Shown here: positions 43,929-45,216 of the stretch, piece after piece
Numbering within the stretch: the stretch's first letter is position 1
How the letters are laid out: each line of letters begins with the position of its first letter
Assembly: GCA_965216755.1 (NCBI GenBank)
Contig: CBDCGL010000011.1
Coordinates: 480,001-544,000 of the forward strand
Direction: 5' to 3'
DNA: 64,000 nucleotides
DNA from: Alphaproteobacteria bacterium
GTDB lineage: Bacteria > Pseudomonadota > Alphaproteobacteria > UBA7887
The notes under the pieces: generated by a model
Told to the model about the DNA's origin: nothing
Database searches by the model: none
Seen by the model: the letters and a program-made list of their open reading frames with translations, nothing else
Position numbers and translations under genes: made by a program

Positions 43929-44083
43929 ATTGGGTTTTGGCGCCGGAGATTTTTTCGTTGTTCCCTAACCCCCCTTTCGGAAGCGCTGCGTGTTTAAGGG
44001 CAGACCGGCAAGACACGGTCACGCCATCACCAACAACGCAACGTCACCAGCAACACATCAACGCTTCTTAGGGGACTTGACCA

Positions 44084-44596
44084 ATGAACGCACTTCTGAA
44101 GATTTCCGCCGCCGTCGCCGCTTTGACTGTGGTTTCCGTTTCGGCCGCCTCGGCTGACGACATCAACTTCGACTTCACCAAAGTTAAGCAAAAAGCCGCC
44201 GTCGTGAACGTTCTGTCGAACAACGACTTCGGCCCCGGTACCGGCGCCAAGAAGGGCGGTTTGACGGTCAACGGTGTGGTCCAGGACGCGGTCATCGCCG
44301 AAGGCAATGCCACGGTCGCGGTCGGCAACTACGCCGAGGCCTACACCCGCATCGGTACGCTCGAGAACGGTGAGGTCAACGGTGTTCTGCAACGTGCCGT
44401 GATCGCCAAGAACAACGTCAACGTCGCCGCCGGCAACTATGCCTACAGCCGCTTGCACATCGGCACGGCGCGTGACTTCGAGATCAACGGTGTCGTCCAG
44501 CAGGCCGTGATCGCCAAGGACAACGCGGTCGTTTCCGTCGGCAACCACACCACCGCTTGCATGGAAATCGGCACGCTCGGCACCCCCACCTGCTAA
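44084..44596 (+). CDS. Secreted protein with three 36-aa N/G/V/A-rich repeats (functional-amyloid / beta-solenoid-like)
   Basis: Signal peptide ending ASA/DD; repeats start at 44267, 44375 and 44483 (108-bp period); C-terminal Cys pair; strongly C-ending codon usage; own terminator. Confidence 0.85.
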   Translation: MNALLKISAAVAALTVVSVSAASADDINFDFTKVKQKAAVVNVLSNNDFGPGTGAKKGGLTVNGVVQDAVIAEGNATVAVGNYAEAYTRIGTLENGEVNGVLQRAVIAKNNVNVAAGNYAYSRLHIGTARDFEINGVVQQAVIAKDNAVVSVGNHTTACMEIGTLGTPTC

Positions 44597-44621
44597 GCAA
44601 CGCCAAATCCACCGCTTACAC

Positions 44622-44657
44622 GGCGGAACCCGCGGCAAAGTCCCGGGTTCCGCCTTT
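44622..44657 (+). terminator. Rho-independent terminator
   Basis: GGCGGAACCCG-N11-CGGGTTCCGCC-TTT. Confidence 0.75.
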
Positions 44658-44720
44658 CCATTTCGGATCACCGAAGCGCGCCGCCCGTGGGGACGTTGCT
44701 TTCGTCCCCAACAAAAAAAC

Positions 44721-44825
44721 TAGAGCATTTCACGCTCACATGCGTTCGCATGACATGCTCTATTTAACTGATATCGATCAATTTACCTTCGTTCAACCAA
44801 CTCCGTTTGAACGAAGATTGATCTA
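44721..44825. repeat. ~105-bp double-hairpin intergenic repeat, copy 2
   Basis: TAGAGCAT...ATGCTCTA hairpin plus GATCAAT..CTTCGTTCAA...TTGAACGAAGATTGATC hairpin; matches 10217-10321. Confidence 0.9.
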
Positions 44826-45068
44826 ACCGCTGGCCCGATGCTTCGGGTTGAAAACGCGCTTGGATGACGCTGGCGCCCTTGCCAGCCGATCTGCCGGCCG
44901 GATTGGCCGGCGCACCAATTCACCGCCGCAATTTGGGCAGCGACCTTGCAAAATCGTCGCCGCGCAGTCGCGGCAGAATGTGCACTCGAACGAACAGATC
45001 ACCGCATCGTTTGTGTCTGGTGGCAAGTTGCGGTCGCAACACTCGCAGTTCGGGCGCAGTTCAAGCAT
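44823..45068 (-). CDS. DUF1272-family small Cys-rich protein
   Basis: MLELRPNCECCD..LP....A.ICSFECTFC..C......CPNCGGELV.RP.R. Confidence 0.92.
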   Translation of the reverse strand: MLELRPNCECCDRNLPPDTNDAVICSFECTFCRDCAATILQGRCPNCGGELVRRPIRPADRLARAPASSKRVFNPKHRASG

Positions 45069-45216
45069 CGTCCAAGCAATTCCTTCATCCAACACGCGAT
45101 CAGACTCAATCATGGCGATTGTGCCACTGTCCGCCAGGTTCATCACGGCATCAATGTTGGCCTTTGTTTCCCTGCCATGACTTTTGGGCGGCGACATGCA
45201 TCAAATGCTTGGATCG

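Follow-up and report, generated by a model that had tools for sequence, protein, structure and literature searches.

The gene at positions 44084–44596 of a 64,000-nucleotide stretch of DNA from an Alphaproteobacteria bacterium (GenBank assembly GCA_965216755.1, contig CBDCGL010000011.1, positions 480,001 to 544,000 of the forward strand; this whole 64-kb stretch is called the window below) encodes a small secreted protein made largely of repeats. We conclude with moderate confidence that it is a repeat subunit, and likely the cargo, of a conserved curli-like export module, and that the window copy is a stand-alone duplicate adding to the dosage of the major subunit. The module is apparently undescribed. 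A preliminary description made from the letters of the window alone had presented the protein as an orphan and as an undescribed secreted beta-solenoid or amyloid-like subunit. The second idea is supported by the repeats, by the variable repeat number of the family and by linkage to genes for a CsgG-like pore; the orphan status and a relation to curlin by sequence are not.

The open reading frame (ORF) is intact and lies on the plus strand. The protein of 170 amino acids (aa) that it encodes divides as follows:

44084–44596, plus strand: coding sequence (CDS) of the 170-aa secreted repeat protein, stop codon included
44084–44155, plus strand: predicted Sec signal peptide, residues 1–24, read from the sequence; signal-like N-termini align across the family
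44156–44266, plus strand: N-terminal segment of the mature protein, residues 25–61 (alignments A1 and A7)
44267–44374, plus strand: repeat 1, residues 62–97
44375–44482, plus strand: repeat 2, residues 98–133
44483–44590, plus strand: repeat 3, residues 134–169, carrying C159
44558–44593, plus strand: C-terminal Cys-pair loop, C159-x10-C170, the C...C tail of the family

The likely signal peptide, in agreement with the earlier account, was read by eye rather than called by a predictor; it consists of K6, a hydrophobic core and A22-S23-A24 preceding D25, and Sec cleavage is predicted after A22-S23-A24. Residues 25–61 are kept in all five paralogs found in the genome and are missing from most relatives (alignments A1 and A7); the structure model predicts that they are disordered. 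The remainder is, as described earlier, three contiguous 36-aa repeats at an exact 108-bp period. They share 20, 20 and 16 of 36 residues in pairwise comparison. Their identities add up to 56; shuffled sequences averaged 9.2 ± 2.8 (maximum 25), and none of 20,000 shuffles reached 56. DNA identity between the units is only 67–69 of 108 positions, which is why Tandem Repeats Finder returned 0 rows for the gene. The low DNA identity and the empty Tandem Repeats Finder result together indicate that the repeat is old and has been maintained at the protein level. The C-terminal Cys pair of the earlier account is C159 and C170, which probably form a disulfide, and the last repeat of relatives also has Cys in the C159 column.

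The gene is far from being an orphan. The genome carries five close copies and two diverged family genes, and other genomes hold relatives. The close copies are:

Copy A: 44084–44596, plus strand, the window copy
Copy B: in a cluster near 3.87 Mb, protein sequence identical to that of copy A
Copy C: alone near 2.82 Mb (locus L007), 89% identity to the window protein
Copy D: in the cluster near 3.87 Mb, 89% identity to the window protein
Copy E: in the cluster near 3.87 Mb, 71% identity to the window protein

Copies E, B and D stand in tandem in a single cluster (locus L006). Read along the minus strand, the order there is a gene for an extracytoplasmic function (ECF) sigma factor, a gene for a 518-aa DUF4384 membrane protein, repeat gene E, a partner gene, repeat gene B, a second partner gene, repeat gene D, the gene for lipoprotein P0038, small121 and an autotransporter gene. 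The partner is a secreted protein of ~100 aa that matched no Pfam or NCBIfam family. Its mature N-terminus, KEFNQRPHLDSGSQ, is conserved, and two Cys occur towards its end. The C-terminal part of the partner was considered as a degenerate subunit repeat, in the manner of the nucleator CsgB; that candidate was dropped after hhalign aligned the signal peptides only (52%). The genome also holds a complete second module (locus L149, 7926–10737, minus strand; G000:C11, ~2.458–2.461 Mb), composed of a 108-aa two-repeat gene, a 138-aa three-repeat gene that likewise ends in the Cys-pair tail, a gene for a partner and one for a pore paralog, P0041. Its layout is that of locus L062 of genome G010. Both of its diverged repeat genes had been missed by the first repeat profile.

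A place just upstream of partner and pore genes is shared by copies B, D and E and by both second-module genes, and not by copy A. Copies A and D have no partner gene directly after them; copy C is followed by one, and no pore gene lies within L007. The window copy sits between a hydrolase gene and a Cys-rich ORF, its flanking genes are unrelated to it, neither a partner nor a pore gene adjoins it, and no other module gene was found anywhere in the window. The earlier remark that fap and csg secretion genes are missing from the window holds for the window only; elsewhere the genome has a CsgG-type export gene.

Beside repeat gene D, P0038 is a 498-aa lipoprotein with a peptidoglycan-binding domain (PG_binding_1) and a DUF4384 domain. 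Its family has 728 relatives of the same architecture in the protein collection; many are labelled CsgG by the Joint Genome Institute, and two carry a precomputed hit to PF03783, the Pfam CsgG family. Twenty members, chosen from 120 listed of the 728, were aligned to give profile A5. DUF4384 and PG_binding_1 were present in all 20 members scanned, and the lipobox residue C20 was invariant in all 20 aligned members, in a consensus ...LLxAAC... read from the sequence without a lipoprotein predictor. Weak Pfam CsgG matches occurred in 11 of the 20 (best E 5.2e-4). We compared A5 by hhalign with A6, a profile of 13 CsgG domains that score over the Pfam cut-off in 13 genomes of the same class; of the 16 loci returned, A6 excludes two with incomplete coverage of the model and a third whose match is shorter. 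The two profiles matched with 96.6% probability (E 5.2e-10, 168 columns), and the match spans positions 20–204 of the 205-column A6. In the ESM Atlas the N-terminal region of the lipoprotein was nearest to CsgG clusters at 0.87, which we take as a lead only. A genome search for a CsgG-like export channel, as the preliminary description had advised, therefore yields two CsgG-like lipoproteins, P0038 and P0041, both outside the window. The HfaB model NF037935 gave 15.9 bits for P0038 and 24.4 bits for P0041 against an equivalog cut-off of 300. Going by these similarities, the pore may be an oligomeric outer-membrane channel that exports the subunit.

Linkage between repeat and pore genes extends well beyond this genome. 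A scan of ~185,000 species genomes with the pore alignment returned 138 relatives, from which 80 loci were kept; 72 of these include at least 1.5 kb of upstream DNA, and two (L069 and L078) duplicate G010 loci and are not independent. Their records are mostly labelled Alphaproteobacteria, Geminicoccaceae, Rhodopila or Acetobacteraceae, with a few Rhodocyclus, Propionivibrio and Halioglobus. Local hidden Markov models (HMMs) found the partner in 40 of the 80 loci. The first profile detected the repeat gene in 22 loci; four rounds of local iteration, with units shorter than 30 aa excluded whenever the profile was rebuilt, raised this to 30. In 27 of those 30 loci it lies on the same strand as the pore gene and no more than 2.5 kb upstream of it. 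The gene order repeat, partner, pore, small121 recurs twice in G000, twice in G010 and in G134. Two contigs of G010, for example, carry repeat gene(s), partner and pore, followed on one of them by small121, and G134 has a three-repeat gene directly upstream of the pore gene. Three other neighbors were counted in the 80 loci: small121 in 12, the 518-aa protein in six and the ECF sigma factor in three. The last two are near the pore so seldom that we do not count them as core parts of the module.

Some loci scored as negative (L146 and L079) hold diverged members of the repeat family. In L095, L106 and L135, labelled Roseicella, Dankookia and Paracraurococcus, off-frame ORFs ~1 kb upstream of the pore gene show a 35–36-aa periodicity (autocorrelation 0.24–0.27), which suggests further diverged repeat genes in another frame or on the other strand, mostly missed by the profiles. 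Given such members and such periodicity in loci scored as negative, the count of 30 should be read as a minimum.

Next to pore genes we counted 44 ORFs for repeat proteins: 17 of them contain two units, 13 three and seven four (the range across the family is 2–7), and 36 of the 44 end in the C...C tail. A profile of 25 repeat units (A2) matched two of 23 genomes of the order and three of 401 in a sample of the class, the source genome G000 being counted in both. Of 1.84 billion cluster representatives, 35 matched A2 at E ≤ 0.001 and nine at E ≤ 1e-10. The 24 matches that were fetched are small signal-peptide proteins of 2–7 units, most of which end in AC[TS]xIG[ST][IL]G...C. The three units of the window protein score 53–54 bits each against A2, C159 and C170 align with the Cys pair of the relatives, and tail and repeats alike fit a family of 35–37-aa repeat proteins. 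Other searches returned little. Of 171 pattern hits in a scan of the genome contigs with A1, the alignment of the five paralogs, not one was confirmed, and a word-based protein search with alignment A7 gave only five proteins, for which the sole source-given name was 'hypothetical protein'.

No known family accounts for the protein. At E ≤ 10 the window protein matched 0 Pfam families, and no Fap, curlin, HfaA or HfaD family in Pfam or NCBIfam matched it. The preliminary description had proposed an HMM comparison with curlin (CsgA), and here the result was clearly negative: none of 28 family members matched Curlin_rpt (PF07012) at E ≤ 10, and hhalign gave 0.1% probability both for A2 and for A7 against A9, a profile of 14 curlin units from 11 genomes. 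The curlin repeat was not matched anywhere in the genome at E ≤ 1, a search in which the E. coli control was found, nor were PF10627 (CsgE) and PF10614 (CsgF) at E ≤ 1, the genome being 99.8% complete and the accessions being those given in PMC3521004. On the Fap side, the structural score against FapC (9u4u) was too low to show a shared fold, and the genes adjoining the paralogs and relatives are CsgG-like with none annotated as Fap, no search of the genome with a FapF model having been made. It is therefore very improbable that the protein is a divergent true member of the FapC/FapB or curlin (CsgA/CsgB) families, an explanation that the sequence comparisons largely refute.

An AlphaFold2 prediction with only the five paralogs as alignment had a mean predicted local distance difference test score (pLDDT) of 52.9. 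Alignment A7 has 28 rows: four paralogs (the identical copy B was omitted), six translated relatives and 18 of 34 non-self matches from the deep search. With A7, residues 61–170 were predicted to be all beta at block-mean pLDDT values of 79–89, and residues 1–30 and 33–57 fell below 50. The model has about two long strands per unit with two-residue turns between them. Every unit has conserved, Gly/Asn-rich positions at the same four places (2–3, 13–14, 20–21 and 30), which could be the four corners of one flattened coil per unit. We judge that the fold looks like a beta-solenoid in this model. The Foldseek matches agree with this, and the model has no close solved relative.

On this basis the module could work as follows. 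Judging from its sequence, the subunit would cross the inner membrane by the Sec route and lose residues 1–24. It would then pass the outer membrane through the CsgG-like lipoprotein, whose periplasmic part would consist of the peptidoglycan-binding and DUF4384 domains; homology and linkage were observed, and export is what we infer from them. Outside the cell, each 36-aa repeat would make up one coil of a three-coil beta-solenoid of the predicted fold, and a C159–C170 disulfide would close its C-terminus. More speculatively, the subunits probably stack into a surface fibre or layer, because three coils, or the two of some relatives, would make too short a solenoid to exist by itself, and the ~100-aa Cys-pair partner is perhaps an adaptor or nucleator. 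From their position beside the main cluster, the ECF sigma factor and the DUF4384 membrane protein probably regulate expression.

Another possibility, which we consider somewhat improbable, is that the protein is a cargo of the same CsgG-like module without being fibrous: a surface monomer or small oligomer, such as an adhesin or an anchor for polysaccharide or matrix, much as in Hfa holdfast anchoring. The linkage to a CsgG-like pore argues for it just as strongly as for a fibre subunit. HfaA and HfaD depend on the CsgG-like HfaB and act as an anchor, not as a free fibre (PMC6707917), and the terminal disulfide loop could be a cap. YadA_head adhesin repeats matched weakly in three of the 28 family members (best E 4.2e-5; the window protein had none), and among the ESM Atlas clusters nearest to the subunit, one bears the automatic name 'Adhesin' (0.89) and another contains HfaD (0.81), leads only. 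However, the two-repeat relatives (17 of the 44 ORFs) would give a solenoid ~10 Å thick, which is hard to picture as stable alone, and five copies of the subunit gene suggest a bulk structural product. The HfaB membership fails as well (15.9 and 24.4 against 300 bits), and no HfaA or HfaD family was matched.

The protein might instead stay in the periplasm, as an envelope protein or as a ligand sensed by the DUF4384 domains, and not be an exported structural subunit at all. The presence of DUF4384 on both the pore-like lipoprotein and the 518-aa protein suggests a shared ligand, and the peptidoglycan-binding domain of the lipoprotein is a periplasmic feature. Moreover, Dueholm et al. 2012 (PMC3521004) placed just 171 of the 601 Pfam CsgG hits in curli systems, so not every CsgG relative need export amyloid. 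We nevertheless find a periplasmic role unlikely: the CsgG-like match spans nearly the whole CsgG domain, the order and content of the module parallel the curli and Hfa export operons, and the ECF sigma and 518-aa genes are near the pore in only three and six of 80 loci.

Several results weigh against an exported, stacking subunit. By these profiles, 50 of the 80 pore loci have no repeat gene, and the pore family is far commoner than the detected repeat family (728 versus 35 hits). With no partner or pore gene adjoining it, the window copy is only presumed to use a pore in trans. End-to-end stacking would be blocked if the conserved disulfide loop at the C-terminus serves as a cap, and the two-residue turns between long strands in the model could also fit a flat hairpin meander. 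Because the partner shows no similarity to the subunit repeat, CsgB-like templating by it is without sequence support. As for the pore, the N-terminal ~270 residues of P0038 had no Pfam match even at E ≤ 10, PF03783 included; the best PF03783 match in the genome, at P0041, reached 19 bits against a cut-off of 20.8; and PDB sequence searches with the single sequence and with profile A5 gave only weak peptidoglycan-binding-domain matches and no CsgG entry. Taken with the hhalign match, the low PF03783 and NF037935 scores make the lipoproteins distant relatives of CsgG and HfaB that lie outside both curated families.

The window copy itself is part of a longer duplicated unit, whose features outside the coding sequence are:

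43949–44654, plus strand: 706-bp duplicated unit, comprising upstream block, leader, CDS and 3' hairpin
43967–43996, plus strand: conserved upstream block AACCCC-N15-GCGTGTTTA, with three exact sites in the genome
43997–44083, plus strand: A/C-rich, largely unstructured 5' leader
44622–44654, plus strand: GC-rich hairpin at the end of the duplicated unit, terminator-like with a weak U-tract

By blastn, window positions 43949–44654 align with L006 positions 11929–11225 (copy B) at 99.15% identity, with five mismatches and one gap. The coding sequences of copies A and B differ at two sites, both synonymous. From this comparison the window copy appears to be a recent stand-alone duplicate of copy B. 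A segment of this length and identity inserted between unrelated genes, without partner or pore, could be a silent or redundant by-product of duplication that contributes nothing itself. We regard that as improbable. The reading frame is intact and has no differences other than the two synonymous ones. The upstream block, leader, Shine-Dalgarno-like site and hairpin were all duplicated with it, and the copy is therefore a complete expression unit. In addition, the second satellite, copy C, retains the same layout at 89% protein identity.

In the whole 5.0-Mb genome the exact pattern AACCCC-N15-GCGTGTTTA is present just three times, each time upstream of a repeat gene (copies A, B and C), and the reversed control had 0 sites. 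Looser versions of it stand upstream of copies D and E. A regulon sought with the strict pattern comprised no genomic sites besides those three. The block is a candidate promoter region for the family; a sigma-70 promoter scan around the gene gave 0 sites. The leader is as A/C-rich as had been claimed, with an A+C fraction of 0.67 (43997–44083) versus 0.48 ± 0.06 for the window, a value reached by one of 2204 windows of 87 nt. Its fold z-score was -0.81, and 37 of 200 shuffles folded equally well. An AGGGGA Shine-Dalgarno-like site is located at 44070–44075, 8 nt 5' of the ATG. Neither leader nor flanks matched Rfam at E ≤ 1. The 3' hairpin (44622–44654) has a predicted energy of -26.4 kcal/mol and a z-score of -4.05, and none of 200 shuffles folded as well. 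The strong terminator of the preliminary description is accordingly half right: the hairpin is strong, but its U-tract, CCUUUCCAUUUCG, is weak, and a consensus scan calls no plus-strand terminator after the gene.

Codon usage is indeed as biased as was stated. The fraction of G or C at third codon positions (GC3) is 0.82, AAC outnumbers AAT by 16:1 compared with 308:278 across window ORFs, and the codon adaptation index of the repeat gene ranks first among 53 window ORFs. The suggestion that this bias signals very high expression is not supported. In 15 presumed ribosomal-protein ORFs, picked by position around the L2 gene and not individually checked, AAC:AAT was 42:52 with no preference for C-ending codons, so the bias is not the signature of the ribosomal-protein set. 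These reference ORFs themselves score only 0.60–0.75 and are uninformative as a proxy for expression.

Several neighboring features deserve a brief record. In the main cluster, L006 13265–14821 and 14828–15481 (both minus strand; G000:C11, ~3.875–3.877 Mb) hold the ECF sigma gene and, after 6 nt, the gene for the 518-aa protein. The N-terminus of this protein carries three repeats of ~45 aa, each with a D.I.WD..DD.IL.YA-like motif. The protein also has a single membrane segment, a coiled-coil region and, at its C-terminus, DUF4384; it is a candidate anti-sigma factor in which no known anti-sigma domain was detected. Directly after the pore gene comes small121 (L006 7808–8173, minus strand), which encodes a secreted protein of ~120 aa (121 aa) of no known family. 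It also occurs in L062 and is a fourth, optional part of the module. The cluster ends with an autotransporter gene (L006 6131–7519, minus strand; 462 aa, beta-domain E 1.4e-60, short passenger of ~180 aa). Its linkage is probably coincidental, because relatives are near the pore in only two of 80 loci.

In the window, a 124-aa ORF with several CxxC-type Cys pairs (44823–45197, minus strand) is convergent with the repeat gene and directly downstream of it; it is outside the duplicated unit and looks unrelated. A 214-aa antisense ORF (44027–44671, minus strand) spans the entire repeat gene. The five paralogs each have a comparable shadow ORF, so that an artefact of a GC3-rich repeat coding strand is the likeliest origin. 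Protein P0003 (149 aa, from an 840-bp ENA contig) is 98% identical to the N-terminus of the window protein over its first ~55 residues, and the remainder carries PF01925. Either the assembly is chimeric here, or a close strain has another junction.

In the literature searched, DUF4384 and CsgG appeared together in no paper. Titles and abstracts of the literature mentioning DUF4384 contained nothing on this module, and a search for 'CsgG-like' with 'peptidoglycan-binding' found nothing relevant. Dueholm et al. 2012 (PMC3521004) does not use the word 'peptidoglycan' in its main text. A broader interpretation would add the 35–37-aa repeat proteins to curli and Fap as a third structural type of bacterial functional amyloid, or of fibre made from stacked solenoids, exported by a branch of type VIII secretion that had gone unrecognised. 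The CsgG-like pore would be fixed to the cell wall by its own peptidoglycan-binding domain, and its DUF4384 domain would capture cargo in place of CsgE. The DUF4384 membrane protein and the ECF sigma factor would report the periplasmic load of subunits to transcription, and the small Cys-pair partner would be a pore-bound adaptor where fibres start. Taken jointly, this is doubtful, and we offer it as a conjecture.

Few secretion-coupled functional amyloid or fibre systems are understood, namely curli, Fap and the Hfa anchor. An unnamed family of small repeat proteins is now tied to a conserved three- or four-gene module around a wall-anchored CsgG relative. If the subunits polymerise, they would represent a new subunit architecture, built of 36-residue coils, sometimes just two of them, with a terminal disulfide. 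They would also bring a new pore design to work on biofilm matrix, amyloid control and nanopores or materials, and a testable role for DUF4384.

The likeness to curli is one of organization. The subunit is small and Sec-exported, and almost all of it is tandem imperfect repeats in which Asn, Gln and Gly positions are conserved. These repeats vary in number among relatives, 2–7 here versus 4–5 and up to 22 in the CsgA homologs described in PMC3521004. The subunit genes have as neighbors genes for small secreted accessory proteins and one whose lipoprotein product includes a CsgG-like domain. In contrast, the repeat unit is 35–37 aa here and ~22 aa in curlin (consensus of A9), and this pore is under the Pfam CsgG cut-off and has PG_binding_1 and DUF4384 in addition. 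A conserved Cys pair ends the subunit, the partner is of no known family, and the genome has no match to CsgE, CsgF or curlin.

The preliminary description also likened the protein to FapC, to which it ascribed an NVAAG-like motif and a terminal Cys; neither 'cys' nor 'cysteine' appears in the main text of two FapC structure papers. FapC of Pseudomonas (PDB 9u4u) has three imperfect repeats, each of which is one cross-beta layer (PMC12392863). Its cores are ~52 to 62 residues long with five strands in a Greek-key arrangement, joined by linkers of ~30 to 260 residues (PMC12392863), whereas the units here are 36 aa, contiguous without linkers, and have about two long strands each in the model. 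Fap also relies on the trimeric transporter FapF and the FapA-F genes, in place of the CsgG-like lipoprotein seen here. The beta-helical adhesins (the YadA head; the two-partner-secretion proteins EtpA and FHA) differ from this family in unit length, in protein size and in export route, which is autotransporter or TpsB.

The Caulobacter holdfast anchor, Hfa, likewise joins a CsgG-like outer-membrane lipoprotein with small secreted proteins, and the records of the module described here are mostly labelled Alphaproteobacteria. This pore fails the HfaB cut-off and has peptidoglycan-binding and DUF4384 domains, and the subunit matches no HfaA or HfaD family. According to PMC6707917, the small proteins HfaA and HfaD depend on the CsgG-like HfaB to reach the cell surface and there assemble into multimers that resist sodium dodecyl sulfate and heat. 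By analogy, the Hfa anchor is the nearest functional precedent for this module.

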